This document shows positions 2,082-46,221 of a stretch of 64,000 bases of DNA, piece after piece. Both the position numbers and the translations under genes were made by a program. The stretch is from Dehalococcoidia bacterium. GTDB taxonomy: Bacteria; Chloroflexota; Dehalococcoidia; Lucifugimonadales; UBA3495. Position 1 is the first letter of the stretch. Each line of letters begins with the position of its first letter. Below the pieces are notes generated by a model. It saw only the letters and a list, made by a program, of their open reading frames with translations, ran no database searches and had not been told where the DNA came from. Location of the stretch: assembly GCA_965220245.1 (NCBI GenBank), contig CBDCPI010000008.1, forward strand, positions 265,264 to 329,263. Direction: 5' to 3'.

Positions 2082-2146
2082 GCCCCGAGACTGGTGAACG
2101 AATCCGCTCATCTGAAACCATTTACGAAAAGGCGAGGAGGAAAACC

Positions 2147-2749
2147 GTGGCCGAAGCCGTAGAGGTTACTGTCTGGTACGACTACACTTGACCCTTCTGC
2201 TATATCGGCCTGGCCAGGCTCGACAAAGTAGCTGAAGAACATCCCATCAAGATAGACCGCAAGGCTTACTTGCTCCAGCCTGACCGTCCTCTGGAAGGGG
2301 AGCCCCGCCGCCTGTTCGATGGGGAGACCGAGACGGAACTCAACCCAGCGATGCAAGAGCGTGCCCGGGGCGTAGGCTTGGTGATGCGCCGCCCCCGGTG
2401 GTCGCCCAACACGGTGAGGGCCCAGGAGGCCACCATTTACGCCAAGGAGCAGGGCAAGGACGGCCAGTTCCATCACTTGGTCGCCGCGGCTTATTGGGAG
2501 AACAGTGCCGACATCGCCGACTTGGGCGCCCTGAAGGGCCTCGCGGAAGCGAGCGGCTTGGACTGGGAAGAACTGTCGCCGCTCTTGGAATCCGGGCATT
2601 ACCGGGACCAAGTGCTTCAAGACTACCAAGCCGCCAGGGAGACCGGAGTTTCCGGGACACCTACTTACTTGATCGCGGGTGAGCTCTTGAGGGGCGATGT
2701 CAGTCTGGAAGACCTACAAGCAGCGGTGGCGCAAGCCCGACAAGGGTAG
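2147..2749 (+). CDS. DsbA/FrnE-like thiol:disulfide oxidoreductase with in-frame TGA (candidate Sec) in a UxxC motif
   Basis: GTG at 2147 lies 6 nt after GGCGAGGAGG. It reads VAEAVEVTVWYDYT-TGA(2189-2191)-PFCYIGLARLDKV and runs in frame into track ORF 2270-2749. The TGA sits where DsbA/FrnE proteins carry the first Cys of CP[WF]C. Confidence 0.7.
2205..2223 (+). promoter_or_regulatory. Candidate SECIS-like hairpin downstream of the DsbA-like TGA
   Basis: tcgGCCTggccAGGCtcga forms a 7-bp stem with one bulged t and a GGCC loop. It starts 14 nt after the TGA. Found by eye, not scored. Confidence 0.35.
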
Positions 2750-2757
2750 CAACGGGT

Positions 2758-5070
2758 TCATTCCCCGGCGTGCAGAGCGCGCCAAATCTTTTCGGGGGTC
2801 AAAGGGGTGTCAATGTGCCGCACTGCCGAGCCGGACAGGGCGTCCATGACCGCATTGGTTACCGCCACGGGAGCGGCCACCGTGGGGAGTTCACCGATGC
2901 CCTTGGCTCCCAAGGGATTTAGCGGCGACGGAGTCTCGATCATGTCCAGAACAATGTTGGGAAACTCGTCGGCAAAGGGAATCGCGTAGTCCATAAAACT
3001 GGCGGTCAAAGGCTGACCCTCCGGGCTGTAGACCATTCCCTCGGTCAGCGCTTGCCCTACCCCTTGCGCGATGGCCCCGTGGACTTGGCCATCGACCAAG
3101 GTGGGATTGATGATGCGCCCGCAGTCATGCACCGCTGCATAGTGGACAATCTTGACCTCACCCGTGTTCCGGTCCACCTCTACCACTGCCACGTGGGCGG
3201 CAAAGGCGAAGGGAGTGCGCGGCAGCGTAAAGGTGCCGCTGAAGTCCAAGCCAACGCTCACCTCTGGGGGAAGGCTTTCTTCGCTATAGGCCGCCGCCGC
3301 TACCTCGGAAAACGCTAAAGTCCGTTCCGGAGCGCTGCCCGCATAAACTTCGCCCGGCCCAAACACCACCTCATCCGGCGAACACCGGAGCAAGGGCGCG
3401 GCCACCAAGGACAGCTTCTCCCGGGCCTCTTGCAACACCACGTGCAGCGCGTTGGCCCCGGCCACGGTGCCCCGGCTGGCGGCGGTGCCGTGCCCGCTGG
3501 GGACGATGGCAGTGTCGCTATGCAACACCTGTACCGCCGCCGGGTCGACCCCCAACTCCCGGCTCACCAACTGGGCGAAAGACGTTTCGGTGCCCTGCCC
3601 GTGGGGCGACAGCCCGGTGTAGGCGGTAACGCTGCCCGATGCGTCAATTTCGACCCGGGCGTACTCGGTGAGGAAGTGCCCTCCTCCCCCGGAGGCCTTT
3701 ACTACCGTCGCCAAGCCAACGCCCAGCAGGGGCTCGTCGGCTCCCTGCTGCCGTGACTTCTCCCGCCAAGCCTGGTAGTCCGCCAGCTCCAAGACCCGGT
3801 CCATCCCCCGCTCGTAGTCTCCCGAATCGTAGGTAAGGCCGGTGGGGGTCTCGTGAGGAAAGCCGTCGTTGGGAATAAAGTTCTTGCGTCTGACCTCGAC
3901 CGGGTCCAACCCCAAGTCCCAGGCGATCAACTCTACGGTGCGCTCCATGCAGAAGGCCGATTCCGGCCCGCCGGCGCCGCGGTACGGTCCGGTAGGCGGC
4001 TTGTTGGTCAATGCGCCCTTCACTTCAACCTGCATCGCCGGGGTCTTGTACGGTCCGGCGATGCGTTGGCCGGCCAACATGGGGACCGCAGCCGTGGCGG
4101 ATAGGAAGTAGGCCCCCAGGTCGGCCACGATCTGCACTTTCATCCCGAGGATAGTCCCATCCTCAGCCGCCGCGGCTTCTACGTCCACCGTATGGCCCCG
4201 GGCTTGGAACGCCAGCATGTTCTCTTGCCGGTCTTCCAACCACTTGATTGGCCGCCCCAGTTGGATGGCTAGGTAAGGGACCAGGATCTCTTCCGGGTAT
4301 ACCGCGCCTTTTTCGCCAAAGCCGCCGCCAACGTCCGGGGCGATGACCCGCACCTTGGCTTGCGGGCGGCCCAACTGGCTGGCTATCTGTTCCCAGACCT
4401 CATGGGGTTCTTGGGTCGAGTCCCAAACCGTGAGCATATCGTCTTGGCGTTGATAGTGCGCCGCTACACCTCGGGGCTCCAACGGCGCTGGCGCCAGTCG
4501 CTGCACCTCATATCGTTGGCTGACGACCCGGTCCGCCTTGGAGAAGGCAGCATCCAGCTCGCCCCCCTCCCGAAAGAGGTGCATCCCCAAGTTGTTGCCC
4601 ATCTCGGCGTGAATCGGCGTGGCGTTGTCCTGCAACGCTGCGAAAGGGTCCGATAGTGCGGGCAACGGCTCATACTCGACGTTCACCAGTCCTGCGGCGT
4701 CCTGGGCCAATTCTGGGGTTTCCGCAACTACAATGGCGACCGCTTGGCCTACATAACAGGCCCGGTCACCGGCTAACACCGGCTGCCCTGGGCCGTTCAT
4801 CACCAGAATCGACTCGTCCGCCCACAGCGGCATCGTCGGAATCGGGGTCAGCACCCCGTCGAGATCGGCCCCGGTATACACCGCAGCTACTCCAAGGAGG
4901 GCCTCGGCCTCGGCGCCGTCGATGCTGCGAATCAAGGCGTGAGCGTGAGGGCTGCGGACCACGACGGCATGAAGCAATTCGGGTAGCTGAATATCGGCCA
5001 CAAACGACCCGGCTCCCACCAGAAGCCGGTGGTCTTCAAAGCGAGTCATAGCTTGTCCTGAAGTGCTCAC
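2758..5070 (-). CDS. Xanthine dehydrogenase/CO dehydrogenase-family molybdopterin-binding large subunit
   Basis: 770 aa. The N-terminus MTRFEDHRLLVGAGSFVADI and the overall layout are typical of CoxL/XdhB-like subunits. GGAGG lies 7 nt upstream of the GTG at 5070. TGA stop. Confidence 0.8.
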   Translation of the reverse strand: MSTSGQAMTRFEDHRLLVGAGSFVADIQLPELLHAVVVRSPHAHALIRSIDGAEAEALLGVAAVYTGADLDGVLTPIPTMPLWADESILVMNGPGQPVLAGDRACYVGQAVAIVVAETPELAQDAAGLVNVEYEPLPALSDPFAALQDNATPIHAEMGNNLGMHLFREGGELDAAFSKADRVVSQRYEVQRLAPAPLEPRGVAAHYQRQDDMLTVWDSTQEPHEVWEQIASQLGRPQAKVRVIAPDVGGGFGEKGAVYPEEILVPYLAIQLGRPIKWLEDRQENMLAFQARGHTVDVEAAAAEDGTILGMKVQIVADLGAYFLSATAAVPMLAGQRIAGPYKTPAMQVEVKGALTNKPPTGPYRGAGGPESAFCMERTVELIAWDLGLDPVEVRRKNFIPNDGFPHETPTGLTYDSGDYERGMDRVLELADYQAWREKSRQQGADEPLLGVGLATVVKASGGGGHFLTEYARVEIDASGSVTAYTGLSPHGQGTETSFAQLVSRELGVDPAAVQVLHSDTAIVPSGHGTAASRGTVAGANALHVVLQEAREKLSLVAAPLLRCSPDEVVFGPGEVYAGSAPERTLAFSEVAAAAYSEESLPPEVSVGLDFSGTFTLPRTPFAFAAHVAVVEVDRNTGEVKIVHYAAVHDCGRIINPTLVDGQVHGAIAQGVGQALTEGMVYSPEGQPLTASFMDYAIPFADEFPNIVLDMIETPSPLNPLGAKGIGELPTVAAPVAVTNAVMDALSGSAVRHIDTPLTPEKIWRALHAGE

Positions 5071-5684: not shown

Positions 5685-6851
5685 GTGGATTCCATTCTTA
5701 TAGTTGGCGCCGGGGTCTTTGGCGTCACCGCCGCGCTGGAACTGCGGCGCCGGGGCTACGCGGTCACTCTGGTTGACCCGGGCCCGATACCCCATCCATT
5801 GGCTCCATCCAACGACGTCAGCCGCATGGTGCGCATGGACTACGGCGACGACGAACTGTATGTCGAACTGTGCGCCGAGGCGATACAAGGGTGGCACGCT
5901 TGGAACCGGCGTTGGAATGAGGAAGTCTACCACGAAGACGGCATCCTCATCGCCAGCAGCCAACCGATGACTCCCGGTTCCTTTGAGTACGACAGTTTCG
6001 CCTGCCTGAGCCAGCGAGGCTACGACCTACAACGAATAAACTCGGGCTGGTTGGGGGAACGCTCCTCCCACTGGGACAGCAACAAATACGTGGATGGCTA
6101 TTTCAATCCCCGGGCCGGTTGGGCCGAGGCCGGGAGGGCCGTAGCCTTATTGGCGGCGGAGGCCAAGGCCAGCGGCGTGGAAGCAATAACGGGAGTCAAC
6201 GTAACCGGAGTTGTTGAAAACGGCTCCCAGGTTACCGGAGTGGCCACGGCGGAAGGAAACAGGATAAGCGCCGACTTGGTGGTGATGGCGGCTGGTGCTT
6301 GGACACCCGCACTGCTGCCCCAACTTGCCGACGTGATGGAGCCGGTGGGCCAGCCTATTTTCTACCTCAAGCCGGAGGGTCCCGGTGCATTCCAGGGCCG
6401 GAATTTCCCGCCTTGGGCCGCCGATGTGCCCCGCACCGGCTGGTACGGATTCCCCGCCAACCGGGACGGCATAGTCAAGATAGCCAACCACGGGCCGGGG
6501 CGGCCCTCCAGACCCAGCGAGTCGCGGGACCTTACGCTGCAAGAAACTGACCGTTTCCGGAAGTTCATCAACGACAACCTTCCTTCCCTTGCCGAAGCCC
6601 CAATCGTTAACCGCCGGTTGTGTTGGTACTGCGACACTTGGGACGGCAATTTCTGGGTGGGTCACGACCCGCAACGGTCCGGCTTGGTGGTGGCCACCGG
6701 CGGCAGCGGCCATGCTTTCAAGTTCGCGCCGGTGTTAGGCCAAGTCATTGCCGACGCCGTCGAGCGAGTCGACACCCCTTACACCCGCCGCTTCGACTGG
6801 CGACCCCGGGGCGAGGCCAAAGCCGAAGCCCTCCGGTATACTGGTGATTAG
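5685..6851 (+). CDS. FAD-dependent oxidoreductase (DAO/sarcosine-oxidase-like)
   Basis: N-terminal Rossmann motif ILIVGAGVFGVTAALELRRRGYAVTLVD. GGAGG lies 7 nt before the GTG start. Confidence 0.75.
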   Translation: MDSILIVGAGVFGVTAALELRRRGYAVTLVDPGPIPHPLAPSNDVSRMVRMDYGDDELYVELCAEAIQGWHAWNRRWNEEVYHEDGILIASSQPMTPGSFEYDSFACLSQRGYDLQRINSGWLGERSSHWDSNKYVDGYFNPRAGWAEAGRAVALLAAEAKASGVEAITGVNVTGVVENGSQVTGVATAEGNRISADLVVMAAGAWTPALLPQLADVMEPVGQPIFYLKPEGPGAFQGRNFPPWAADVPRTGWYGFPANRDGIVKIANHGPGRPSRPSESRDLTLQETDRFRKFINDNLPSLAEAPIVNRRLCWYCDTWDGNFWVGHDPQRSGLVVATGGSGHAFKFAPVLGQVIADAVERVDTPYTRRFDWRPRGEAKAEALRYTGD

Positions 6852-10685: not shown

Positions 10686-10710
10686 CGCAATTCACTTCCG
10701 GCGCGACTAA

Positions 10711-11657
10711 GCGCCTATCCTAAAAACAGAATTCGAGCTAAACTAGTGGTATGACGAAAGCGAAGGAACCCAAGCCGCCACGACCGAAGCGCGCCGGCCC
10801 AGCGGCGCCGGTCAACCCCACCACCGGCTCCTTTCAGGTATCCGATGAACTGTGGGAAGTGCTGGCCCCGTTGCTTCCCCGGCGGGTGAACACTCATCCC
10901 CGGGGCGGAGGCCGTCCCCGGGTCCCGGACCGGACCTGCGCCAACGGCATATTCTACGTGCTGCGCACCGGCTGCCAATGGAAAGCCCTGGATGCCACGG
11001 GCATTTGCTCCGGATCCACCGCCCATCTGCGCTTCCAGGAGTGGGCCGCCGCCGGGGTGTTCCTGGAGCTGTGGCGGGCGGGCCTGCAAGAGTACGATGA
11101 ATTGAAGGGTCTGGACTGGAGTTGGCTGAGCATGGACGGGGCGATAACCAAATCCCCCCTGGGCGGGAAAAAAACCGGCCCCAACCCCCACGGACCGGGG
11201 CAAGAGCGGGGTCAAACGCAGTCTGTTGACCGAAGCTGAGGGCATCCCGGTGGGGCTGGCGGTGGACGGAGCCAACCGCCACGACATGAAACTGGTGCGG
11301 GCTACGCTGGACAGTTTCCCGGTGCCGCGCCCGGCGCCCACTCCGGAGCGTCCCCAAGGTCTGTGCCTGGACAAGGGCTATGACTATGAGGAGGTGCGCC
11401 GAACCCTGGAGGAATTCGGCTTCACCGCCCACATCCGCAGCCGGGGCGAGGAGGCCCAGGCCATCAAAGCCCAGGCCATCAAAAAGGAGGCTGGCTTCAA
11501 AGCCCGGCGCTGGGTGGTGGAACGCACCCACAGTTGGATGAACCGCTTCCGGCGCATTCTGGTGCGCTGGGACAAGTTTCCCAGAAACTACATCGCCTTT
11601 CTTCATTTCGCCTGTGCCCTTATTGCTTTCAGGGCTGCCGGATTATTAGGATAGGCT
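10711..11657 (+). mobile_element. IS5-family (IS427/IS1031-like) insertion sequence, copy 1
   Basis: Imperfect TIR GCGCCTATCCTAA / TTAGGATAGGCT. CTAA direct repeats at 10707-10710 and 11658-11661. The transposase is in two frames: orfA 10751-11239 (ELWEVLAPLLP ... GIFYVLRTGCQWKALD) and orfB, in the +1 frame, running to 11654. Near-identical to 59218-60164. Confidence 0.85.
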
Positions 11658-11661
11658 CTAA

Positions 11662-14675: not shown

Positions 14676-15407
14676 TTAGGGGAGAACCTCCAGAGAGGGG
14701 CCGGAGAGAGCCGCGTCTTTGACGGTGTAGCTGCCCGGAGTTTTTTGGGTAATGATGTCCAACAATGATGCAGCGTCGTGAGCTGCGACGCTCTCCAAGC
14801 CCAAACGGGTGCTGGAGTTCACTTCTCCGATCACCTTGAAGGTGATCGTAGCCACCGCGCCGTTGCCGCTGATACCATTCGCGTCAACCACCGCCGCCCA
14901 GACTGCCCCCGGTGTCTGGGTGCTGGCCTCCAAGAGAGCCGCCCCAGCCAGTGGACCCGGTTCTACGGTGAGGACTTGCAGCACAGCGGGGTCGTAGACC
15001 AACACAAACTCCAGGCTGCCTATGTTCTTCGCACCCTCCAGATGGACCGGTACCGCGATCTCCGCAGGGAGTACGGGAGTCGGCTCTGGCGTAGGAGTGG
15101 GTGATGGGTCCAGTGCCGGGGGTTTGGTAGGCGCCGGTATGGGTGTTGGCGCCAGAGTTGGGGTAGGACTAGGCGCCGGAGTGGGGCTGGGAGTTGCGGT
15201 CGAGGTCAACGTTGGGGTAACCTCCGCATTAGCCGCCGCCGGTGGGGAACCCGGTGGGCTGGCCGCACCGGCATCGCCGCCGCCAATCACGCCCGAAGCG
15301 TATAGGGAGACGGCCAGTACGCCGGCGATGACCATACCGCCCAATATCCATTTGTAGTTGCTAGTTATCGCAATCCAGGCTACGCTCAGGTACCACTTCA
15401 TACCCAC
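14676..15407 (-). CDS. Membrane-anchored cohesin-domain protein with a Pro/Thr linker
   Basis: It has an N-terminal TM segment, then a PT-rich linker (TPSPTPAPSPTPTLAPTPIP), then a cohesin-like module (VPVHLEGAKNIGSLEFVLVYDPAVLQV ... ATITFKVIG). It starts 4 nt after the upstream gene's stop. An alternative ATG lies at 15401. Confidence 0.6.
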   Translation of the reverse strand: MGMKWYLSVAWIAITSNYKWILGGMVIAGVLAVSLYASGVIGGGDAGAASPPGSPPAAANAEVTPTLTSTATPSPTPAPSPTPTLAPTPIPAPTKPPALDPSPTPTPEPTPVLPAEIAVPVHLEGAKNIGSLEFVLVYDPAVLQVLTVEPGPLAGAALLEASTQTPGAVWAAVVDANGISGNGAVATITFKVIGEVNSSTRLGLESVAAHDAASLLDIITQKTPGSYTVKDAALSGPSLEVLP

Positions 15408-15410
15408 ACC

Positions 15411-18308
15411 CTACTCAGGCTTGGCCTTAATCAAGATTTGCCGGACATCCTGCGTCGTCACACTTCCGTCCCCGTCTAGGTCCAACACCGGGGTTTCCGG
15501 GGCAAGGCCTGCCGACGCCTTAAGCGCGATCAAGGCATCGAGGGCCGTGATCCGGCCATCGCCGTTGCCATCGCCAACCGTGGGCTGCCCGATAGTCAAG
15601 TGCCCCTCTCTCAATTGGAGCGGAATCTGCGCCCCGCTGGTGTCACCGGCCAACACGTCGGTGAAATTCAGCAAACTGGTAGTGTCCAGTTCACCGATGG
15701 CCCCGAATTCCACACCTACCACCGGACCGCCGTCCCCAAACCCGTCGGGCGCCGCAAATCCCACCCGCACCACACCGGCAACGTCATAGTTGTAGCTAAA
15801 AGTTGCCGGAGATAACCGGGGGCCTTTGGACACCCTGATTACTTCCAATACTGCCGGGTCGTAGTGGAGCGTAAAACCAACGCTGCTGAGACCCCCGGTC
15901 TCCACCAGGGACACCGGGACCACCACTTTTCCTCCCGGGGCGACGATGCGTGGTTCCACGATTAAACCGGGACCAGGTGGAACGGGAGTTTCGCTGTCAG
16001 TAGGGGCTACCGTATCCGCCGGCGCCGGCGGTATGGGGTCGGTCGTGGAGTCAACCAGACCATCTCGGGTAGTAACCGTTATTTGATAAGTCCCCACGGG
16101 GTTTTCAATATGTTGGTCCCCGGTGACGGCGACCAGGTAGGTCCCGGTTACGGGCGCAAGCCATTCCAGCGTGTTCCCCTGTCCAAAGTTGGACTTGGTA
16201 TAGCCCGCTTGGTCTTGAGTCAAGAATAGGTGCACAGCCGGCGCCGTCCCCAACTGCACTTGGACCACATACTCCTCGCCGCGCTCCCCGTCGAAAGCAA
16301 AGTAGTCCGTATCGTCGGCTGGGCTGATAGCGGCGGCAGTTGCATTGCCGACAAAGATAGGAGTTGCCTGCGCTGGGGAATCATCATGCCGGTCCCCCAA
16401 AGCCGTATCCGCTTCAATCTTGAGAGAGTAGGCCCCCAAGGGGTCCTGGACCGCAGGTGAGGCGGTTACCTCCACGGCATATACTTCATCATCGGGCGCG
16501 ATCCACATTACGCTGGCGCCATCGCCGTAGTTACTGGCTTCAGCGGGACCATCGCTGTACTGGTAGACAGCTAACGAGACCGCCTCAGCAGTATCGTAGC
16601 TTAGTTGGAAATCGTACCGGACCCCTCGGGTGGCCCGAAACCTAAAGTAGTCCTTATCCTTCAAGGGGCTGATCGACCCTTGATAAGTCGTGCCAAATTC
16701 TACCTGGGTAGCTGAAACTTTGGTGTCGCCATGGCGGTCCTTCAGCTCATCATTTCCCTCTACCGTGATCGTATAAGTGGCGATCTGACCGGTGCTTCGG
16801 ACTGCGCTGGAGACAGCCACATAGTATCTACCGACGCTTTGGGCGGTCCAGTTGACCTGGGAGCCTATGCCCCTGTTGGAGTGCACCGTTTTGCCATTGG
16901 CCGCTAGGATCTTTATGTCCACCGGGAAGTCCGAAGTGAATGCCACAGCGATGGAGTAGCTGGCGCCGCGCTTGGCGGTAAAGGAGAAATAGTCTAGATC
17001 ATCAGCGGGGCTTATGGCGCCCGACACCTCGTTGCCCAGTTGGACTCGGCTGGCCGATTGACGCAGGTGTGAATGTCTGTCTTCGAAGTCAGGGTCAGCA
17101 TCGACCACCAGGGAGTAGGTGCCCACTGAGGTTCGGACTTGAGCCGACCCGGACACCACGATAAAGTAGGTCTTGGTAGCCGGAGCCACCCAGTCCAAGG
17201 TGGTGCTGATGCCGCTATTGGAGGCAATGTGTTGCCCGCCGGTCCCCTCTATGGCTAACTCGATGCCGGCTAACTCGATGCCTTGGGCATCGCCCAAATT
17301 CGCGGTGATACTGTACTTTATTCCTCTGGATGCTCGAAAAGAGAACACATCCCGGTCGCCCTCTGGACTGATGGCTCCCTGGTGCGCGTTGCCGAAACGC
17401 ACGATGGTAGCGCCGGCTTGGGAGCCGTCGTGCCGGTCTTCGTAGTCGCTGTCGGCGTTGAGGGAGAGTGAATAGGTGCCGACCGAGTCCTCAACCCGGT
17501 TAGACCCTGACACCATAACGTAGTACGTGCCTGAGGATGGTGCGACCCACACCAGTCCCGGTCCCGCGCCGTTGCTTGACTCTTCTTTGCGGCCGCGAGA
17601 GTCGATGAGGGCAACCTCGACCCCTTCCGCAGTACCCAATTGGAGGTCGACCGTATATCTAACACCCCTTGACGCTTGAAAGGAGAAATAATCTCGGTCG
17701 TCGGCCCCGTGCTTGGTGCCGATCACGGGTTGGTTGGACCAAGGGCTGATTGCGCCCCGGTAAACGTTGTCGATGCTGATGGAGGTAGCGTTGGTCTTAG
17801 CGTCGCTGTGACGGTCCTCCAGGGACTTATCCTCAGTGGACGACAACAAGTAGGAGCCCAGGTAGGCAGACCCGTCGGGGGCGTCGCTCCTGACGCCCGA
17901 GATTTCTATAAAGTAGGTGTCAGTAGTGCGGGCGATCCATTGGACCTTGATCTGGTCCTCGTTCTCTCCGGGGAGCCTCACTTGGCCAGGCGAAAATTTC
18001 AAACCCCTGGCTTCGGAATTCACTACTTCGATCCTGGCGTCATAGACCCCTTTTAGGTCCAAAACGAAGGAATAGCGGACCCCGCGTTGCACTGAAAAGG
18101 AGAAATAATCGACATCCGGCTCATCGGCGGTAGGGTCGATCTTGCCGCCGACCAGACGCCCATCGTTATAGATGGTCGTCGCTTCTGCCGGAGAGTCGCC
18201 GTGATCGTCGTCGGCAAACACCGATGGAGTGGTATTAAGTAGGAGAAAAACCGAAGCGATGACCAGCGCTATCAACGCTAGTCCAGATGGGGTAGCCAGT
18301 TTGTGCAT
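15411..18308 (-). CDS. Secreted protein with six PPC-like repeats, a cohesin module and a C-terminal dockerin
   Basis: It has a signal/TM segment. Six repeats of about 110 aa follow the pattern [ED]DRH.D ... A ... G.ISP..D.DYFSF.A.RG..Y. Next come a PT linker and a cohesin-like module (GFTLHYDPAVLEV). The C-terminus has two dockerin-type Ca-binding repeats (GDGNGDGRITALDAL and LDLDGDGSVTTQDV). The start was set at the ATG at 18308, after GGAGGGG. Confidence 0.7.
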   Translation of the reverse strand: MHKLATPSGLALIALVIASVFLLLNTTPSVFADDDHGDSPAEATTIYNDGRLVGGKIDPTADEPDVDYFSFSVQRGVRYSFVLDLKGVYDARIEVVNSEARGLKFSPGQVRLPGENEDQIKVQWIARTTDTYFIEISGVRSDAPDGSAYLGSYLLSSTEDKSLEDRHSDAKTNATSISIDNVYRGAISPWSNQPVIGTKHGADDRDYFSFQASRGVRYTVDLQLGTAEGVEVALIDSRGRKEESSNGAGPGLVWVAPSSGTYYVMVSGSNRVEDSVGTYSLSLNADSDYEDRHDGSQAGATIVRFGNAHQGAISPEGDRDVFSFRASRGIKYSITANLGDAQGIELAGIELAIEGTGGQHIASNSGISTTLDWVAPATKTYFIVVSGSAQVRTSVGTYSLVVDADPDFEDRHSHLRQSASRVQLGNEVSGAISPADDLDYFSFTAKRGASYSIAVAFTSDFPVDIKILAANGKTVHSNRGIGSQVNWTAQSVGRYYVAVSSAVRSTGQIATYTITVEGNDELKDRHGDTKVSATQVEFGTTYQGSISPLKDKDYFRFRATRGVRYDFQLSYDTAEAVSLAVYQYSDGPAEASNYGDGASVMWIAPDDEVYAVEVTASPAVQDPLGAYSLKIEADTALGDRHDDSPAQATPIFVGNATAAAISPADDTDYFAFDGERGEEYVVQVQLGTAPAVHLFLTQDQAGYTKSNFGQGNTLEWLAPVTGTYLVAVTGDQHIENPVGTYQITVTTRDGLVDSTTDPIPPAPADTVAPTDSETPVPPGPGLIVEPRIVAPGGKVVVPVSLVETGGLSSVGFTLHYDPAVLEVIRVSKGPRLSPATFSYNYDVAGVVRVGFAAPDGFGDGGPVVGVEFGAIGELDTTSLLNFTDVLAGDTSGAQIPLQLREGHLTIGQPTVGDGNGDGRITALDALIALKASAGLAPETPVLDLDGDGSVTTQDVRQILIKAKPE

Positions 18309-18546
18309 GTCCGCCCTCCCCTCCAATTCCACCCGGCCCTGGCGCTACCGCCGCGGACATTGACCCTTCTGGGTCTTAGTTTGGGTGCATCGAGTCGGCC
18401 TAATTACCCAGGATGCCGAGCGTTTAGGATGCGCTAGACAGAATTATAGATGCCCGCCACGGACCGGTTCAACTGTATGGAATGCGGATTATTAGCAAAA
18501 CCGCGAGACTTTCCATCCGGAGCCACCCTTGGCCGGCGACAGTTTT

Positions 18547-20112
18547 CTAGTCCCGACCGTAGACGCCGGTAGCCGGGTAGAAGGCGTACCAACCGAACCA
18601 GAAAGCGGAACGGCCGGGGAGGCGCCGCAAAGGCACCGTAGGGTCTCCGTGCCGGGCCAGGGCGTCTTCCTCCAAACGCCACCTTAGGCCGTCATCGTCG
18701 ATGAGAAACACGGACCCTTCTTCTCCTTGCTCGGTCTCCAGCCTAACAAAGGTCTGGCCGGAACGCTGGTAGGCCCGAGGGCCGCCGCCAAGCGGAGTGA
18801 CCAATACCAAGTCCACCCCGCCTATGGAATCGTTAATAACGGCAGTTTCCTCTAGGACCCCTTGGGGATAAGCCTTGGCTTGCCCGTTGAAATCAAGGCC
18901 GAATACCCTGGACTTGGCCGTCAACAGGTCACTTCTTTCCGGCACCGGAAACATCGTCTTGGCGCTTTGCCGATAGGAGGTGTAAATGGAGCCGGGGTCG
19001 GACTCGGGACGGTAGGCCCGCGGCGGGTAAACCCCGGTGCGGACATCCAACACGGTGGTATCCGGATGGGTTGCCAGCCAGTCGGCCCAAGTGGTCAACG
19101 CGACGGGCAAGACCTCTAGGGTGATACCGCTCCCCGCCAACTCGCCAACGACGGGCTTACCTCTGAATTGATGCCAAAGGGAATTGGCGCCTTTGTCGTA
19201 CATTAGCTTGTTGCTCCGGTAGAGCCACCCGGAGGTCCCGAACTGTAGCACTTCGCCGTTTATTTCGGTGGAATACACGATTCCAGAGCCGCAGAGGGTT
19301 CAATAGGCCAAAGCAAAGGGTACCCCGCCCAGTACGTCGTTCGCCATCTCGTGGGCATTCAGGATGCGGAGCGGGTACGCCCGGTGTTCACCGTTGATGG
19401 ACACCCCGAATACCCGGTCGGTGGGCTCCAAGAAGTCCGCGTCCTCCGGCGGCAGCACCGGCGGGTTGTTCAACTCCGGTATGCCGTCCTTGGCCACCCC
19501 GCCCCAAACGATTTCTTCCAAGCGAATCTCGGTCTTCACGCCCTGATAGAGGAAGCTCCCCAGCCCCGGATCGATTAACGAGTAGAGGTCCCCTTTCCAA
19601 GCGTCATATCCTTCCGGGGCTTGGACCTGCGGGTTCCGGCCCAGCCACTCTATCCACCAAGCCCAATCGGTCCGCTCGGGAGCAATAACAATGGTTTCCG
19701 GCCCTTCCAGAAGTTTATTGATGAATGAGGCTACGTTAATCCTTCCCTCAGCCTCGGATTGAAACCGCATGAATTCGAGGAGCACCGGAATGAAAGACAG
19801 GTTGCCAGCGGCAACCATCTTCTCCGCAATGGCGGCCACGTTTCCGTCAATGGTCGCTCGCATTAGCTGGGTAGGGTCATCTGGAAGCTCGGGAGTCGGC
19901 TGAATTCCCGCAGCGGTCAAGGCCTCGGAATCAGGACTTGCCGAAGTCGGAGCCAGCGTAGTCGTTGGGGCCAAAGTGGCAGTGGGAGCAGGGACGAAAT
20001 TGGCCGTGGGGCTCGAGGTGGGTCCCGGCATCCCGGTGGCCGACGGGGTGCAGGCGGCGGTCAACAGCAGCGCCGCCGCCAAGAATATGAGCACTCTAAA
20101 AGGGGAGTTCAA
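18547..20112 (-). CDS. DUF3179-family lipoprotein with in-frame TGA (candidate Sec) in the conserved CPLC motif
   Basis: Track ORFs 19300-20112 and 18547-19278 are in one frame. The junction reads GGVPFALAY-TGA(19302-19300)-TLCGSGIVYSTEING. DUF3179 hallmarks lie on both sides: KDGIPEL ... HRAYPLRILNAHEMANDV upstream and a FWFGWYAFYPATGVYG tail downstream. The N-terminus is lipobox-like (LLLTAAC). TTG start after AAGGAG. Confidence 0.75.
19269..19285 (-). promoter_or_regulatory. Candidate SECIS-like hairpin downstream of the DUF3179 TGA
   Basis: In mRNA sense, tGGAATcgtgtATTCCa forms a 6-bp stem with a CGUGU loop. It starts 15 nt after the TGA. Found by eye only. Confidence 0.3.
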
Positions 20113-29303: not shown

Positions 29304-32300
29304 TCAGCCGTTCGGCGGACTGGCGATGTAATCGCGGGCGGCGTTCTCAGCCTCGGTCGCTAGGGCGGCAATGTTGGGAACGGACTCTTCGCGGCCGAGC
29401 CGGACGAACAGGTAAACCACCTCGGACACGGGGCGGCCGGTGGCCCGGTTGACCGCCAAGGCGTAGGCCCCGGCTTGCATCCGGTAGTTTTGCAGGCGGG
29501 CTGCGGTCTGGTCGGCGTCCACGTCGTCGGTCTTGTAGTCCACTACAACCAGGTGCCCGTTTTCCTCGAAGAGCAGGTCGATGAAACCCTCCAAGACAGC
29601 GCCGCCTTCGAGGGGTATTCCAAGGGGGACTTCGCGCCAGTACCTGGTTGAATTGACGGCCCGCTGCACTATATCGCTGGCGATTGCCTTCCGGACCAAC
29701 TGGGCGACTTCGGCGCGGCGGTGGGGAATGCCCTCCGCCGTGGCCTGGGCGTTGGCGGTGTCGTCGATACCCGAACCGGTAGCCAAATCTATGGTCTGGA
29801 GCACCGAGTGGACGGCCCGTCCAACCTCGCTGCTGCCGCGCCCCCGCTTCCAAGGCTCATCGGACTCGGACTCCTCCTTGTCCACGCTGGCCAGGCGGGT
29901 AGCGGCGATGGATGTTGGGGCGCTGTTGGCCTTAATCAGGGCCGCTCGCGCCTTGGTCCATTGCTCCCGCTCTTCCAGTGAGTGGCTCTCCGGGTCGATG
30001 CCGTCAGCGCCGGATTCATCGGCTACCTTGGGGGGCAACTCGTGGGGCTGTGCCCTTTGCCACAGGTAGTCGCCGCCCTCGGCGAAGTCGGCTACCCGAT
30101 GGGCCAAGCTAATGCCCCTATCCCGGCGGTACATGCTGACGGCCAAGTGGTCGCGGGCCCGGGTAGCGGCGACGTAAAGCAGCCGGACAGCCTCTTCTTG
30201 CTCTAAGGCCCGCTCGAGGCTGAGGGCATCCGCATATCCGGGGGTCTCAAAACGGGAGCCCTCCGACCCAGCTCTGGCCTCGATGCTACCGTTCGTTCGC
30301 TCGAAAATAACGGGTCTGGAACCTCCGGTCCGGGATAAGTCGCTGTTAATCCGGGTCAGGATGACGATGGGGAATTCCAAGCCTTTAGCGGCGTGGACGG
30401 TCATAATCCGAACAGCGTCTTCGTCGGCGTCGGGACTCGCTGCTTCGGCGACTCGGGCGTTTTCGTCGCGTCGGCGGTCCATCCACTCGATGTAGCCGCG
30501 AAGCGATTCGCCCCCGGCGGCCACGAATCCGCGGGCTTGGTCGACCATGAACCGGTAGCGCCGCCAGTGCTCCCGGGTCCGCGGGTGGTCGAGGGCAAGC
30601 TGCATCAGATGCCGCTCCCGGATAAACCGGTCGATGAGGTGGGCTACCGAGTCCCAGTTCCGCGCCGCGTGATACCCGCGCAGCTTTTCCAATCCTTGGG
30701 AGACCGGGCCGCCAACCGGCCCGTGGAGTGTCAAATAGTCGAACCGGCTCCCGGCCTGATGAAATTCCAGCAGCTCCACGTCGGAGCAAGCAAAGGCCGG
30801 CGAGCGGAGCGCGGCGACAATCGCCACCTCGTCCGAAGGGTCGTCGATGGCCCGCAGGCAGTTCATCAGGTCGCGGACTTCCTGGGTGTGGAATACCAGA
30901 GACGCGCCCTCCATCCGGTAGGGCGCGTCCGCCGCTTCCAGCGCGTTCTCCAAGCTGGAGAGGCCGGTGCGGGCCCGCAGCAGAAGACAGATGTCCCGAA
31001 ATTCGGCGGGGCGGTAGCACTCTTGGCCCTCGGCCTCGGTCTTCTCCCGGTCCAGCACCTGCCAGCCATCCTCGACAATGTTCCGCAGCAGACGAGATAT
31101 GGCTTCGTCCTCTTGCCGCCTGACCTCAGCCGCACTGGCGCTTACGACGACATCGCCCAGCCGCCACACGGCGGGTCTGGGCTTGCCTTCGCCGCTGCCG
31201 CGCCCCTGCTTCCAAGGCTCACCTTCCCACCGGTGGACTATTGGTTCATAGCCGGGCTGGGTTTCTCCCTCCGCCATCCATGGACCAAAAATGTGGTTGA
31301 CCCACTCCGCCACCGGCTGCTGCGAGCGGAAGTTCTGGACCAGTTGGACGATCTCCCCGCCCATCTGCTCGCGCAACCCGGCGACTTGGCGGATGTCGGC
31401 ACGCCGAAAGCGGTAGATGGACTGCTTGGGGTCGCCTACCACGAACAGCTTGCCGCGTTCCGGGGTGATGTTTTGCCACTGGCGCGGCCGATCACCGGCC
31501 GCGCCGCCCAAAGGCGCATCTTCGGACAAGAACAAGGCGATTTCGGCCTGGATGGGGTCGGTGTCTTGGACCTCGTCGATCAGCAGGTGGGTGAAGCGCT
31601 GCCGGAAGTAGTCCCGCACCGCAAGGTTGTCCCGCAGCAGGTCCCGGGCCCAGACTAGCAGGTCATGGTAATTGGCGCGGCCCTGACGCTTGCGGCCGGC
31701 CGCGTAATCGAGGGCAAAACCGCGCAATTCCTGCAACAGGTGAGATAGCGCGGACTGCCGCACCGCCGCTATTTCATCATCCACTGCGGTCCGGACTTCC
31801 TTGACCAAGGCTTTAAGTTGCGTGCAGGCATTGGCACCGGTCTTCGAGTCTTTCCGCCAATCGGCCGTGCGGCCCCGGTTGCCGGGCGGCCAGAGAAGCC
31901 TCGTAAGTTGGAGGTAGCTGTCCGGCTCATCGGAAGGCGCTTTTCCCAGTCCCACCGCGATGCGAAGCAATCTCTGGACACCGGCATATAACGGGTCATC
32001 GTCTCTCAGGTCCGAATATTGGCAGAGCCTAGCGAGTTCATCGGACTCACTGAGGAGCCGGTCTGCCGCCGCGGCCTCGGGCATGAGAGCTTCGGCGATG
32101 TGATAGGACTCCAGCAGATCGTAGTTTTGGTGAAATTCCAGAGCTATATTCCGTAGCTGGTCCGGACTGAGTCCCATGGTGAAAGCCAATCGCAGGTCCA
32201 GGATGGTCTCGTCACGGCGCATCGCGCCGTCCAGCCAGTCCCGCCACCGCTCCTCGAAAGCCAACTCCCCCGCTATTTCGTCCATAATTTCGAATTCGGG

Positions 32301-32687
32301 CGGGAGTCCGGCCTCCAAGGGGCGCTCTTGCAGGATAGCCGCCGCAAAGCCATGCAACGTTTGGATCGAGGCAAGATCCAAGCCCTGCAAAGCGCGGCGG
32401 GCGCTTTCCTGCTCTGGTGGGCTGAGGGACTCGTCGGCCCCCGCCTTCTCCAGTCCCTCACGAATCCGGTGGCCCAACTCGGCGGCGGCAGCCTCGGTGA
32501 AGGTGATAGCCGCAATGCCGCCGATGGACGCCCGCCCGGTAATGACCAGCCTTAGCATCCGGCCCACCAAGCTGGAGGTCTTGCCGGTACCGGCGCCGGC
32601 CTCGACGAACAGCGTCTCGTCCAGTCGGTCGAGAATCTTCTCCCTGGCGCTTTGGTCTTGAGGCTGGAATGGGCCTGCCATGCTCAC
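29304..32687 (-). CDS. addA: UvrD/Rep-type helicase fused to a PD-(D/E)XK nuclease (AddA/AdnB-like)
   Basis: 1127 aa with Walker A FVEAGAGTGKTS, LLIDEVQDT, VGDPKQSIYRFRRA and the C-terminal nuclease motif VVDYKTD. The start overlaps the stop of the upstream gene. Confidence 0.8.
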   Translation of the reverse strand: MSMAGPFQPQDQSAREKILDRLDETLFVEAGAGTGKTSSLVGRMLRLVITGRASIGGIAAITFTEAAAAELGHRIREGLEKAGADESLSPPEQESARRALQGLDLASIQTLHGFAAAILQERPLEAGLPPEFEIMDEIAGELAFEERWRDWLDGAMRRDETILDLRLAFTMGLSPDQLRNIALEFHQNYDLLESYHIAEALMPEAAAADRLLSESDELARLCQYSDLRDDDPLYAGVQRLLRIAVGLGKAPSDEPDSYLQLTRLLWPPGNRGRTADWRKDSKTGANACTQLKALVKEVRTAVDDEIAAVRQSALSHLLQELRGFALDYAAGRKRQGRANYHDLLVWARDLLRDNLAVRDYFRQRFTHLLIDEVQDTDPIQAEIALFLSEDAPLGGAAGDRPRQWQNITPERGKLFVVGDPKQSIYRFRRADIRQVAGLREQMGGEIVQLVQNFRSQQPVAEWVNHIFGPWMAEGETQPGYEPIVHRWEGEPWKQGRGSGEGKPRPAVWRLGDVVVSASAAEVRRQEDEAISRLLRNIVEDGWQVLDREKTEAEGQECYRPAEFRDICLLLRARTGLSSLENALEAADAPYRMEGASLVFHTQEVRDLMNCLRAIDDPSDEVAIVAALRSPAFACSDVELLEFHQAGSRFDYLTLHGPVGGPVSQGLEKLRGYHAARNWDSVAHLIDRFIRERHLMQLALDHPRTREHWRRYRFMVDQARGFVAAGGESLRGYIEWMDRRRDENARVAEAASPDADEDAVRIMTVHAAKGLEFPIVILTRINSDLSRTGGSRPVIFERTNGSIEARAGSEGSRFETPGYADALSLERALEQEEAVRLLYVAATRARDHLAVSMYRRDRGISLAHRVADFAEGGDYLWQRAQPHELPPKVADESGADGIDPESHSLEEREQWTKARAALIKANSAPTSIAATRLASVDKEESESDEPWKRGRGSSEVGRAVHSVLQTIDLATGSGIDDTANAQATAEGIPHRRAEVAQLVRKAIASDIVQRAVNSTRYWREVPLGIPLEGGAVLEGFIDLLFEENGHLVVVDYKTDDVDADQTAARLQNYRMQAGAYALAVNRATGRPVSEVVYLFVRLGREESVPNIAALATEAENAARDYIASPPNG

Positions 32688-35600
32688 TCATCCTCGGCGG
32701 TAGCAAGTTCCGCGTAGGGCCGGACGGCGCTATCGCCGGACTTCCGCTGCCATAAAAGGTCACGCTTGGAGGGGCACAGCGCGTCGAAGTCACAGTACTT
32801 GCAGTTGGCAAAAGAGCCGCGATCGGCATTGCCCGGATTGGCCGGGAAGACGCCGGCGTCAATGCCGGAGACGATCAGGGACATGGTCCGGTCGAATTCG
32901 TCCTTGACGTCCGCCAAGCGCATCGGAGACTTGGGAGCCATTGAGAATCCGCCCCGGTTGCTGATGAACCAGTAAGCAGAATTGACATCCACATCCTCGC
33001 TCAAACCGCTTTGGACCGCCAGCGAGTAGATGGCCAGTTGAAGGCGCTGCCCGGCCTGTATCGGGTCTTTGTCCATGCCGGTGTAGCCAGATGAACTGCC
33101 GGTCTTGTAGTCGCGCACCAGCGCCTTGCGCCCGTCGGGAGACACGTCGACGCGGTCGATGTAGCCGCGGAACTCGATCCTGTCCGTATTGGGAAGCGTA
33201 ATGGCTGCGGCCGGCCATCCTCCGGCCACCCCGAACCCGGCCTCCAGCCAGGCCGGGGTGACGCCGTGTTCGTATCTGAGCCTAGAGTCTTCTTCCAAGA
33301 ACCGGTGCAGGTCGGCTCGAATATTGGCTTTGTCCATCTGCCACATCAGGTCTCGGCCGGTCATGCCGCGGGACTCGACCTCGTCGAACCTTGCCTCGGC
33401 AATCTCCATCAAGCGACGCCGGTGAGCATCATTCCATGCCTGGTCCGGCCGGGGCGCCGTGTTTTGATTGATGGCCTCGCCAACGAAATTTTCCAGAATG
33501 GCGTGTACCAGTGTCCCCCGGTCCACTGGCGAGAGGGATAAGCGGTCTTCGGGCTTTTCCACGGCGCGCAACCCCAGCACTCGCGACAGAAAGTAGCTGA
33601 ACGGACACGTGGCCCAAGCCTCTAGGCTGGTGGCCGACAAGGGCCGACGGGGCGCCAACCGGGGCTGGTTAACGATGGCGTCGGCCACGTTCCCGTCCCA
33701 GAGAGTGAAGGCGCCGCCGTAGCGCAGCCGGGCCAGTTGCACCGGCTTGGCGAGAGGCCCGTCGCCCGCCGCCATTGGATGCCGGTCCAGGCTGGCGCCT
33801 GATTTCTGCCACGCCCTCATCGAGTCCAAGTCGTAGTCGTGCAGGTCGGCGACGGAGGTCCGGTCGACGCCGTCCAGCGACTTGTCCATTGAGCCAAGGA
33901 TGGTCAGCCAGGGTTGCGAGGCCAGCCCACCCAACGTCGATGGGTAAACGGCTTGGCCGCTGAGATTCGAGGCCCGTTCCAAGAACCAGCGGGACGGGTG
34001 CTGCTCGCGTCCGCCTATGGGGTCGGAGGCGGGGCAGGACAGCCACCGCACCGGTGCCGAGTGCAGGGCGGCCAAGAACGTGTACCGTTCCTCGCTGGCC
34101 CGGTAGTCCCGCAGCGGTAGACCGGCCCCGCTGCCTTGCCCTGATTGAGACGAGGCGGCGCGGGCGCGCTCCGGCAGCAAGGAGTCGTCCCGCTGCGGCG
34201 GCGGAAACGCCCCCTCGACCAGGCCCACGATATGGACCACATCAAAGCTCATCCCGGCTGCCGCCCCCACCGGGGCTACGAACACGCCGCGGCCCGTCTC
34301 CCCGATGCGGCCCGGAGATACTTGCAGCGCCTCCTGAAAGACCTGCTCAAATGCGGCAAAGTCGGGCTGAACGTCGACAAAGTCCGCATGGCCGACTTCC
34401 GATAGGATTTCACTCACCTGACGGTGAGCGGCGTGGCCGGTTTCCGGAGCATCGGGGCCAAGGTCGAGATAGCGGTCCAACAGGCCGCTGGCCCATCCGG
34501 CAAGACCGCCCCAAGTGTTGTCGCCGCTGGGCGGTGTTGTATCTCCGGCCAGTGTCTCGACGAAGTCCTGCAACTCCCGGGCCGCCTTGGCCCGGTATCG
34601 AATGCCCTCTATCTGGTGCTCGGACAGCTCGCCGCGTGTCGGCGCGTTAGCCGCTGCCTGCTCCAGACCTTCTGCGAAACTGTGGAGCCGCTGCGTCCAT
34701 TGGTCCCGTCCGCCGACCACACCGGCGTCCCGGGATATTGCATCCCAAAGGCTGGGGTTGATTTTGCGGCCAGCCGACCCAACTGGGCAGCCAGTAAGCC
34801 AAGCCATGACCTCGTCGCGCATAAAACCGCCCTGGCACAAACGCAGCAGGCCGGTCAGCGCACGTCCGGCGCCGGTGCTGGCCAGGGTGGCGGGGTTGGG
34901 CCCGGTGATAGGAATCCCGGCCAGTTTCAATTCCTCCAGTAGCTGGACGCCGTAGGGCTCCCGGCTGCGGTATAGCAGGGCCATGCGATGGAAGGGGACT
35001 CCGGCGTCCGCCTGCTGGACAATGTGGCGTATCGCGCTGCGTATTTCTTGGTGGGGGTCGGGCGCCACCAGCAGCGTCTCCCAGTCCAGCGTCTCACAGT
35101 CCGAGGAAGGAACTCCGTCGTCGTCTCGCAACCGCTCCGGCCGCTGGCCACTGGCCACCAGCCACTGGGATTGCGCCGGCCCGAATATGTGGGCCAACCG
35201 CTCCGCCACCAAATGCGCGGGCGCGTCGGCGGACTCGTCGCCAGTCAAGTCGAGGTACACCGAGCACTGCCCTGCCGCCGCAAGTGCTTCAATCAACGCC
35301 ATTTCGCCACGGGTGAGGCGGCGCACCTTGTAAAACACGACGAATCCCAAGTCGGCCAGGCCAAGCGAGTGGCTGCTTCTCACCGCCTCGGCGGCGGCGA
35401 GGGCCAGGTCTTCCCGGTCGTAGAAGCCGGTGGCCGTGCGCTCCCGGAAGGCCCGGTAGAGCCGCACCACCTCGGCGCGCAGACCGTCCTCGCCTTCCAG
35501 AATAGCGAGGGCATCCTCGGAGACCGGCCGCAGTTCGCGGAAGGTGCGCGCCAGGCTGCGAATGGTCGAAGGGTGAAGACGCTGCTCGCGGAGAGGGCCG

Positions 35601-35962
35601 GCCGCTTGGGCGCACACTGCTCGCACCGATGCGCTTTCAAGGACCGGCGTTAGCGGGCGCCGTCCTTGGGCGGCCAAAGCCGGGGCCGCCAGTAGCTCGG
35701 CTAGGCGGGGCAGCACCATAAATCGCACGTTACACAGGCCGGAGCGCCCCAGCTCTCGCCGCAGCTCAAGGTTGGCAAAGCCCGACGGCCCGATCACCGT
35801 TACCGGCCGCAGCGGGTCACCCCGTTGCAGCGATGCCACCGCCTCGCCCAACGCTTCGTTGGCTTGGCCGCGGTTGGTTTGGTCTCCGTTTGTTTGATCA
35901 ATGAAAAACAGCCCGGCGCCGTCGCGTCTCTCGGTTGCCTGCCCATTTCCAGTATTACTCAT
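32684..35962 (-). CDS. addB: AddB-like PD-(D/E)XK nuclease subunit with Fe-S cysteines
   Basis: 1092 aa. It has WATCPFSYF, the nuclease motif VRDYKTG, and a CKYCDFDALCP cluster. The Walker A is degenerate. Confidence 0.7.
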   Translation of the reverse strand: MSNTGNGQATERRDGAGLFFIDQTNGDQTNRGQANEALGEAVASLQRGDPLRPVTVIGPSGFANLELRRELGRSGLCNVRFMVLPRLAELLAAPALAAQGRRPLTPVLESASVRAVCAQAAGPLREQRLHPSTIRSLARTFRELRPVSEDALAILEGEDGLRAEVVRLYRAFRERTATGFYDREDLALAAAEAVRSSHSLGLADLGFVVFYKVRRLTRGEMALIEALAAAGQCSVYLDLTGDESADAPAHLVAERLAHIFGPAQSQWLVASGQRPERLRDDDGVPSSDCETLDWETLLVAPDPHQEIRSAIRHIVQQADAGVPFHRMALLYRSREPYGVQLLEELKLAGIPITGPNPATLASTGAGRALTGLLRLCQGGFMRDEVMAWLTGCPVGSAGRKINPSLWDAISRDAGVVGGRDQWTQRLHSFAEGLEQAAANAPTRGELSEHQIEGIRYRAKAARELQDFVETLAGDTTPPSGDNTWGGLAGWASGLLDRYLDLGPDAPETGHAAHRQVSEILSEVGHADFVDVQPDFAAFEQVFQEALQVSPGRIGETGRGVFVAPVGAAAGMSFDVVHIVGLVEGAFPPPQRDDSLLPERARAASSQSGQGSGAGLPLRDYRASEERYTFLAALHSAPVRWLSCPASDPIGGREQHPSRWFLERASNLSGQAVYPSTLGGLASQPWLTILGSMDKSLDGVDRTSVADLHDYDLDSMRAWQKSGASLDRHPMAAGDGPLAKPVQLARLRYGGAFTLWDGNVADAIVNQPRLAPRRPLSATSLEAWATCPFSYFLSRVLGLRAVEKPEDRLSLSPVDRGTLVHAILENFVGEAINQNTAPRPDQAWNDAHRRRLMEIAEARFDEVESRGMTGRDLMWQMDKANIRADLHRFLEEDSRLRYEHGVTPAWLEAGFGVAGGWPAAAITLPNTDRIEFRGYIDRVDVSPDGRKALVRDYKTGSSSGYTGMDKDPIQAGQRLQLAIYSLAVQSGLSEDVDVNSAYWFISNRGGFSMAPKSPMRLADVKDEFDRTMSLIVSGIDAGVFPANPGNADRGSFANCKYCDFDALCPSKRDLLWQRKSGDSAVRPYAELATAEDE

Positions 35963-37584: not shown

Positions 37585-37640
37585 CCGGACAGGGTCACGA
37601 AATTCATGCACCTATGGACGAGGCCAAAGGGGCTATTACC

Positions 37641-46016: not shown

Positions 46017-46221
46017 GGCCGCGAACGGGTCCGTATTGGGGTGTACTGAAACCTTTTTGTCCAGCTTGGTTGGCCTGAGTGCACGGTAGGTGGTACTGTC
46101 TTCGAGATGTGGCTGGGGCACGATTAACCCACTGACGACTTCTGTCCAAATAACGGGGTCCACCTCAGCTATGGAGTACGCCCCGTCCTTGATATCTCAA
46201 AATGCGGTGTATTTCGCATCT

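Follow-up and report, generated by a model that had tools for sequence, protein, structure and literature searches.

Does an in-frame TGA that takes the place of the catalytic cysteine codon in a DsbA-like gene end translation, or is it decoded as selenocysteine (Sec)? The question is raised by positions 2147-2749 of a 64,000-nucleotide stretch of DNA (the whole of which is called the window here) from a Dehalococcoidia bacterium (assembly GCA_965220245.1, contig CBDCPI010000008.1, positions 265,264 to 329,263 of the forward strand). An earlier note on this DNA had proposed a candidate selenoprotein with the TGA at the catalytic Cys position, and this proposal is supported by a conserved TGA column, by frozen synonymous sites around the codon and by covariation in a hairpin behind it. 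We regard it as highly probable (roughly 0.9) that 2147-2749 is one gene, which would encode a 200-residue cytoplasmic oxidoreductase of the FrnE/DsbA type with Sec as its nucleophilic residue (U15-P-F-C18).

The reading frame across the TGA and the protein family

Read from the GTG at 2147, the frame gives VAEAVEVTVWYDYT (14 codons), then the TGA at 2189-2191 and then PFCYIGLARLDKVAEEHP..., and it stays free of stops up to the TAG at 2747-2749. The earlier note was right in placing the GTG behind a strong GGAGG site (GAGGAGG at 2134-2140, with a spacing of 6 nt) and in following the frame past the TGA into the DsbA-like body at 2270-2749. Its N-terminal peptide has to be corrected in part: the sequence just after the TGA indeed reads PFCYIGLARL, but VEVTVWYDYT is an abbreviated version of the full 14-codon reading. 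As that note had also foreseen, a standard open reading frame (ORF) call covers 2270-2749 only, and in the mechanical ORF list the gene therefore appears as a motif-less product of 159 aa with a TTG start. Another in-frame start further upstream, at 1928, was rejected, as it overlaps the preceding BNR gene and the homologues start 14-16 codons before the TGA.

A global reassignment of TGA was considered as well. TGA ends 25 of the 57 greedy ORF calls in the window and is the terminal stop in 22 of the 80 homologous DsbA-like genes themselves. The two stops that had been quoted as genuine, at 2758-2760 (minus strand) and 42064-42066, end real genes, both with full-length Pfam matches. Because TGA is an ordinary stop in ORFs of the window and in the same genes, a reassigned genetic code is excluded.

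With U read as C, the read-through protein matches the Pfam family DSBA (PF01323) with 112.2 bits (cutoff 25.6), residues 7-194 covering positions 2-190 of the 191 in the profile. The 159-aa ORF alone reaches 71 bits and its match begins at profile position 60; about 40 bits thus come from residues in front of the called start, the active site among them. The similarity upstream of 2270, on whose significance the proposal depended, is therefore significant, and homologues align from upstream of the TGA. In the match to Deinococcus radiodurans FrnE (PDB 5cnw; E 4e-14, residues 3-196) the U lies over the first Cys of CPWC, YT-U-PFCYIG of the window standing opposite IACPWCYIG. The Cys homologue P0006 (202 aa, 62% identical) reads VTVWQDYTCPFCYVSLGRLD, with YTCPFCYV where the window has YT-TGA-PFCYIG. 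Both alignments place the TGA on the first, catalytic Cys of CxxC, and U15 and C18 would form the sole redox pair of the window protein.

The structure was modelled on a proxy, namely P0006. The AlphaFold2 model of this Cys homologue has a predicted local distance difference test (pLDDT) of 92.4 and a predicted TM-score (pTM) of 0.87 and places CPFC (17-20) at the start of a helix (18-34). In Foldseek searches with this model the best solved matches were Streptomyces coelicolor SCO1869 (TM-score on the query, TMq, 0.80) and D. radiodurans FrnE (0.74-0.78), followed by the kappa-class glutathione S-transferases (kappa-GST) together with 2-hydroxychromene-2-carboxylate (HCCA) isomerases, and by cytosolic reductases of the DsbM/Rv2466c type. 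The P0006 model shows a thioredoxin fold with an inserted helical domain. By inspection no signal peptide is apparent, strand beta1 beginning about 7 residues after the start codon in the homologues (MTTSTAVSVTVWYDYT...) as in the window. Judged from its sequence and from the proxy model, the protein belongs to the DSBA superfamily and is of the cytoplasmic FrnE type.

Conservation of the TGA and a hairpin behind it

A protein search returned 209 homologues, and the best 120 of them were surveyed for length. All except P0006, the only full-length one, are 121-182 aa long (119 proteins) and start just after the motif, with called starts as different as MGLGRLD, MLAKEL, MAERHP and MRRP. A genome scan with one genome per GTDB species yielded 80 loci, all of them from metagenome-assembled genomes (MAGs) of Dehalococcoidia/Chloroflexota, SAR202 included, with 52-72% protein identity to the window. 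The 80 loci align across the TGA, which settles the concern of the earlier note that homologues might align only from the 2270 start. TGA occupies the motif column in 79 of the 80 species loci; the surrounding motif is W[YQHF]DY[TA]-TGA-P[FYW]CY[VI]G in 76 loci and TGA-PHCYIG in three further ones. The only locus without TGA, L070, has CGA (Arg) at the Sec column (3043-3045) and a later frameshift, and is either a pseudogene or affected by (long-read) assembly errors. Conservation of the TGA column is far beyond chance.

The same codon was found in independent samples. P0025, a 121-aa fragment that is 100% identical to the window gene, is encoded on contigs from four metagenome samples of the Joint Genome Institute (JGI), L081-L084. 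Over 1.9-3.1 kb these contigs are 99.6-99.97% identical to the window, with 1-7 single-nucleotide polymorphisms, and all four read ...TACACT TGA CCCTTCTGC....

The dipeptide inside UxxC varies by clade. It is PF in the window, PY in L002 and similar loci, PW in the subclade L068-L080 and PH in L046, L047 and L067. In thioredoxin-fold proteins the dipeptide between the redox residues usually tunes the redox potential.

The codons around the TGA show a further kind of conservation. Entropy was computed for each codon position over 80 sequences, with codons numbered relative to the TGA. In codons -10 to -6 the third position is the most variable one in every codon (1.45-1.94 bits, against 0-1.27 for positions 1 and 2), which marks coding sequence under purifying selection upstream of the TGA. 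In codons -3 to +11 the third position falls to 0-1.1 bits with positions 1 and 2 also low, so that synonymous sites are constrained. From codon +12 onward the third position is at 1.65-1.85 bits (1.2 at +15) with mixed values at positions 1 and 2, as in ordinary coding sequence. The frozen zone has ACT for Thr(-1) in 76 of 80 genes, CTG for Leu(+7) in 79 of 79 and AGG or AGA for Arg(+9) in 79 of 80, and for Leu(+10) no codon but CTC or CTG. Elsewhere in these 80 genes, by comparison, 12.7% of the 1111 Arg codons are AGR, 14.6% of the Thr codons are ACT and 52% of the Leu codons are CTG. Compared with the rest of the same genes, the frozen third positions indicate synonymous constraint across some 45 nt surrounding and following the UGA, a footprint as would be expected of a selenocysteine insertion sequence (SECIS) embedded in coding sequence.

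A hairpin lies within this footprint. The earlier note had located it at 2205-2223, beginning 14 nt downstream of the TGA, which was about right: the window's own fold has a stem-loop at 2205-2223, its core can be extended to 2204-2224, and the hairpin starts 13 nt after the TGA. The pair 2204:2224 is unpaired in the window (A-C) and is G-C in most homologues. The loop, with G as its first base, begins 20 nt behind the UGA. For bSECISearch a spacing rule of 16-37 nt is reportedly used.

Alignment A2 comprises 81 sequences, with column 1 being the T of the TGA. RNAalifold predicts on it the pairs 19-32, 20-31, 21-30, 22-29 and 23-28 around a four-base loop, which is GGNN in almost all sequences. 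The location of the hairpin is the same in every sequence. The pair 21:30 is compensatory (CG in 68, UA in 6 and UG in 3 distinct sequences), and the pairs 20:31 and 22:29 are invariant. The lower stem occurs in two registers that track the Val codon: in sequences with GUC the pairs 18:34 and 19:33 are formed and U32 is bulged, and in those with GUG and in the CUGGAC clade 18:33 is paired (GC in 27, CG in 9). For the continuous register three measures each exceed all 500 shuffles, namely the paired cells, the cells in which both sides have changed, and the score for covariation; registers slid against it are all worse, with 15-77% paired versus 92%. This conserved RNA element is a hairpin as would be expected for a bacterial SECIS, and its spacing and small G-rich loop match the published description of such elements (PMC1088965). 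The coordinates are collected in Table 1.

Table 1. Positions of the gene, its functional sites and two further genes discussed in the text (window coordinates).
Feature	Position	Strand	Basis and remarks
Shine-Dalgarno-like GAGGAGG	2134..2140	+	direct sequence reading; GTG start 6 nt further on
Complete predicted selenoprotein coding sequence	2147..2749	+	200 codons including the Sec codon, then TAG; translation, Pfam DSBA, FrnE 5cnw, 80 loci aligned across the TGA
In-frame TGA, predicted Sec codon, residue 15	2189..2191	+	in place of the first, nucleophilic Cys in CxxC; same codon in 79/80 species loci and 4 metagenome contigs
TGC, Cys18, resolving residue of U-P-F-C	2198..2200	+	only Cys of the protein; codon +3 is Cys in 80/80 homologues
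SECIS-like hairpin	2204..2224	+	core stem 2208-2211/2216-2219, loop GGCC 2212-2215, lower stem 2205-2207/2221-2223, U2220 bulged
CCT, Pro172 in G-T-P (the cis-Pro loop that faces the active site in thioredoxin-fold oxidoreductases)	2660..2662	+	G170, T171 and P172 invariant in alignment A1; loop aligns with FrnE G-V-P
FAD-dependent amine oxidase, sarcosine/N-methyltryptophan oxidase type (DAO family)	5685..6851	+	Pfam DAO 1e-50
DUF3179 gene split by TGA 19300-19302	18547-20112	minus	ORF 19300-20112 ends in TGA, in-frame continuation 18547-19278

Sec decoding in the lineage and competing explanations

Close relatives of the organism are published Sec users. BSepDB, which takes only species with at least two genes of the Sec pathway, has among its top ten by selenoprotein number Dehalococcoidia UBA1141 (49 genes) and the isolate 10f4566d-... 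(46) (PMC13326102). UBA1141 is our best-matching locus (L001) and the isolate ranks eighth (L008); both carry the TGA in the DsbA-like gene.

A six-frame scan of the window for TGA in Cys-containing motifs yielded only the DsbA-like gene and one DUF3179 gene, the rest being out-of-frame Arg/Pro-rich noise. The DUF3179 gene is interrupted in the same manner. Its fused protein covers positions 1-292 of the 292 in the Pfam profile PF11376 in a single stretch across the TGA, and it reads ALAY-TGA-TLCGSG where full-length homologues (51-62% identical) have ALAYCTLCGSG. The nearest homologues (64-100% identical) are fragments of 218-248 aa that begin just after the motif. The TGA is followed by a hairpin GGAAU-CGUGU-AUUCC with a CGUGU loop, the N-terminus is lipoprotein-like (...LLLTAAC), and the gene sequence is identical in the Logan contig L085. 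DUF3179 proteins with UxxC/T are a listed selenoprotein family (PMC13188914). P0124, one of the full-length DUF3179 homologues in alignment A4, carries Trp at the Sec/Cys column (ALAYWTLCGSG), a residue whose codon differs from TGA by one base. Immediately downstream of the DUF3179 gene, at 14676-18332 (minus strand), lie genes for two secreted-type proteins with cohesin, dockerin and pre-peptidase C-terminal (PPC) domains, and the arrangement is the same in L085. Because the window holds this second gene of selenoprotein type and because close relatives are published Sec users, the use of Sec is supported indirectly, and this very organism probably decodes it.

Several results weigh against Sec decoding at 2189 or against the hairpin as its signal. 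No selA, selB, selD or tRNA-Sec lies within the 64 kb window: Pfam found no SelA, SelB or SelD in 49 window ORF calls (out of 57, with all but six short ORFs and a single antisense artefact covered), and ARAGORN found no tRNA of any kind in the window or in 60 related loci. The covariation rests on few pairs, as most stem positions are invariant and hence uninformative, and shuffle control (a) is weak for the bulged register (29/500). Over 40 nt the hairpin folds with -7.9 to -11.8 kcal/mol, no better than dinucleotide shuffles (z -0.05 to -1.8). Rfam gave no match at gathering thresholds in the whole window and no relevant one at E<=10 in 2100-2320. At the protein level no NCBIfam model covers the window protein, the sole match being NF041057 with 36.5 bits against a cutoff of 190; as no model exists for it, annotation pipelines fail to rescue the full-length gene.

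Among the competing explanations, decoding of the UGA as another amino acid, by near-cognate Trp or Cys or by a local or lineage-specific recoding with the hairpin as a generic stimulator, survives best, and we consider it very unlikely. The inserted amino acid cannot be told from sequence alone, the Trp of P0124 at the equivalent DUF3179 column would fit such a reading, and so would a window without Sec machinery. However, the column is that of the catalytic Cys in CxxC, the classic Sec/Cys position, where Trp or Gly as nucleophile would inactivate the motif. The spacing and the small G-rich loop of the hairpin moreover fit published bacterial SECIS elements (PMC1088965), and relatives that carry this gene possess the Sec pathway along with dozens of selenoproteins (PMC13326102).

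Still less credible is simple termination at the TGA, so that the product would be a truncated, motif-less DsbA-like protein made from the TTG at 2270 or an ATG at 2384 and the upstream similarity a decaying remnant. This would agree with the lengths under which 119 of the best 120 homologues are stored (121-182 aa), with TGA being a normal stop in this genome and with the unexceptional energy of the hairpin. Yet the 14 codons before the TGA and the 26 between it and the TTG at 2270 are under protein-level purifying selection in 80 species. Since the possible downstream starts differ between species, no such start is conserved, and a thioredoxin fold that lacks beta1 and the start of the active-site helix would be no functional domain. 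A sequencing or assembly error or a recent pseudogene with TGC or TGT as the true codon, for which a single base change would be enough and L070, with its CGA and frameshift, can be cited, is practically negligible: the window gene is free of other disruptions, TGA stands in 79 of 80 species, and because the four further metagenome contigs carry it, assembly or sequencing error is excluded.

If the TGA is decoded as Sec, translation would begin at the GTG 2147, and SelB-GTP-Sec-tRNA(Sec) would be recruited at the UGA 2189 by the hairpin 13-35 nt downstream, with its GGNN loop and bulged U. Sec would then be inserted in place of termination, and the ribosome would read on to the TAG at 2747. 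In the folded protein the selenolate is expected at the N-terminus of helix alpha1, facing the cis-Pro loop T171-P172. It could attack a substrate disulfide or another oxidised thiol, forming a selenenylsulfide that Cys18 would resolve. Compared with Cys, Sec would bring higher nucleophilicity and resistance to over-oxidation. The insertion itself, the redox direction and the substrate are thus predictions made from sequence.

Gene neighbourhood and comparison with known systems

The DAO-family oxidase listed in Table 1 has N-methyl-L-tryptophan oxidase as its best NCBIfam match (192 bits, below the cutoff of that model). A homologue of this oxidase lies downstream on the same strand in 50 of the 80 loci, with a gap of 11-85 nt in 41 of them. 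In the window the DsbA-like gene and the oxidase gene are separated by a minus-strand gene of the molybdopterin CoxL/aldehyde-oxidase type (2758-5070). In the window, L001 and L008 the oxidase stands 2.4-2.9 kb away (2.4-2.7 kb in the latter two), and a tblastn search for the CoxL-like gene gave no homologue in the 80 loci, and so none in L001 or L008 either. Upstream, the same BNR/Sortilin-type gene is present in 24 of 80 species.

Because the pairing with the flavoenzyme is frequent and operon-like, a role linked to it can be imagined. The sarcosine-oxidase-type enzyme would produce H2O2, and the DsbA-like protein might, speculatively, serve in its thiol repair or protection or in the handling of its product. 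A more far-reaching version sees in the protein not just another Sec form of a housekeeping disulfide oxidoreductase but a near-obligate selenoenzyme (Sec in 79 of 80, Cys forms rare) and the dedicated partner of a co-transcribed flavoprotein of the sarcosine/N-methyl-amino-acid oxidase type; we think this unlikely. If it were true, a two-gene module would tie selenium to oxidising methylated amines or dissolved organic matter, for instance through peroxide/thiol repair by a selenol or through an isomerase resembling kappa-GST, and with such a pairing a DsbA-like selenoprotein would stand in a new functional context.

Other features of the window lie further away. A Septu-type defence pair is encoded on the plus strand, with a PtuA-like AAA ATPase at 37614-38951 (PADLOC PtuA 1.3e-38) followed by a PtuB-like HNH nuclease at 38955-39512 (3.5e-19), and it is adjoined by an AddAB-like helicase-nuclease pair (29304-35962, minus strand). 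An element of 1.24 kb is present in three copies, two of them direct and 99.6% identical (50287-51523 and 54917-56153) and one inverted with 85% identity (44779-46017). The copies sit in the transposase-dense region of 44.8-57.3 kb with DDE_3, DDE_5 and DDE_Tnp_1 genes, and the 250-aa ORF of the two near-identical copies has no Pfam match. In addition, a 953-bp inverted duplicate (10707-11659 and 59216-60168, 99.7%) occurs about 47.5 kb apart, each copy with a 264-aa ORF that has no Pfam match; it could be an unclassified mobile element, an inversion site or an assembly ambiguity.

Among known systems the classical periplasmic DsbA is exported via a signal peptide, and by inspection the window protein has none. 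NF041057, the Rcas_1661 family of thioredoxin-like (seleno)lipoproteins from Chloroflexi, is a model for thioredoxin-superfamily selenoproteins with weak similarity over the C-terminal half, but the window protein scores far below its cutoff, has no lipoprotein signal and is not a member. The branch of kappa-class GST and HCCA isomerases (PDB 1r4w, 2imd, 3fz5) shares the fold (TMq 0.71-0.74; 2imd E 5e-4 by sequence) and is likewise cytoplasmic, with a role on small molecules rather than in protein folding. Enzymes of this branch are not known to have a CxxC dithiol and use glutathione with an active site of the Ser/Tyr type, whereas the window protein keeps a complete U-x-x-C pair.

Of the proteins with a solved structure, FrnE of D. 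radiodurans (DR_0659; PDB 5cnw, 5cp1, 5xwh), which is a disulfide oxidoreductase/isomerase of the cytoplasm, matches best by sequence. The two have in common the lack of a signal peptide, the CPxC position at the start of alpha1 (with U for the first Cys in the window), an aligned cis-Pro loop and a helical insertion domain. They differ in that FrnE has Cys and not Sec, at about 25% identity, and in length: the FrnE chain has 260 residues, of which the alignment reaches 216-217, and the window protein ends at residue 200 without the C-terminal tail. This tail bears a cysteine in FrnE (a C239S mutant entry exists), and a CxxxxC within it reportedly has a role there, whereas the window protein has only Cys18.

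The closest counterpart is the DsbA-like selenoprotein with UxxC. Such proteins (COG2761) were described with SECIS predictions from the Sargasso Sea metagenome in 2005 (Zhang, Fomenko and Gladyshev, PMC1088965); a study of 2006 found them in four bacterial genomes (PMC1794560) and one of 2016 in 41 organisms (PMC5029168), and a 2026 review lists "DsbA-like protein form 1, PF01323, UxxC" (PMC13188914). The window gene shares with form 1 the Pfam domain, the COG-type (FrnE-like) relationship, UxxC with Sec in first place, a SECIS-like hairpin just downstream with a G in the small apical loop, and an origin in marine or environmental bacteria; the likeness is one of description and not of alignment to the published examples AACY01178397 and NIP15863.1. 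The gene belongs to a selenoprotein family known since 2005, in Dehalococcoidia already reported as rich in selenoproteins, and in principle it changes little. In a large Dehalococcoidia clade Sec is nearly fixed and a sarcosine-oxidase-type gene usually follows, and these two details, the near-fixation and the conserved flavin-oxidase neighbour, may be new. For annotation the gene matters in that nearly all of the surveyed homologues (119 of the best 120) are stored as truncated "DsbA family proteins" without active site. A set of 80 species with a near-fixed Sec codon, a synonymous footprint that delimits the SECIS and a flavoenzyme neighbour could guide work on why Sec is kept in this family.

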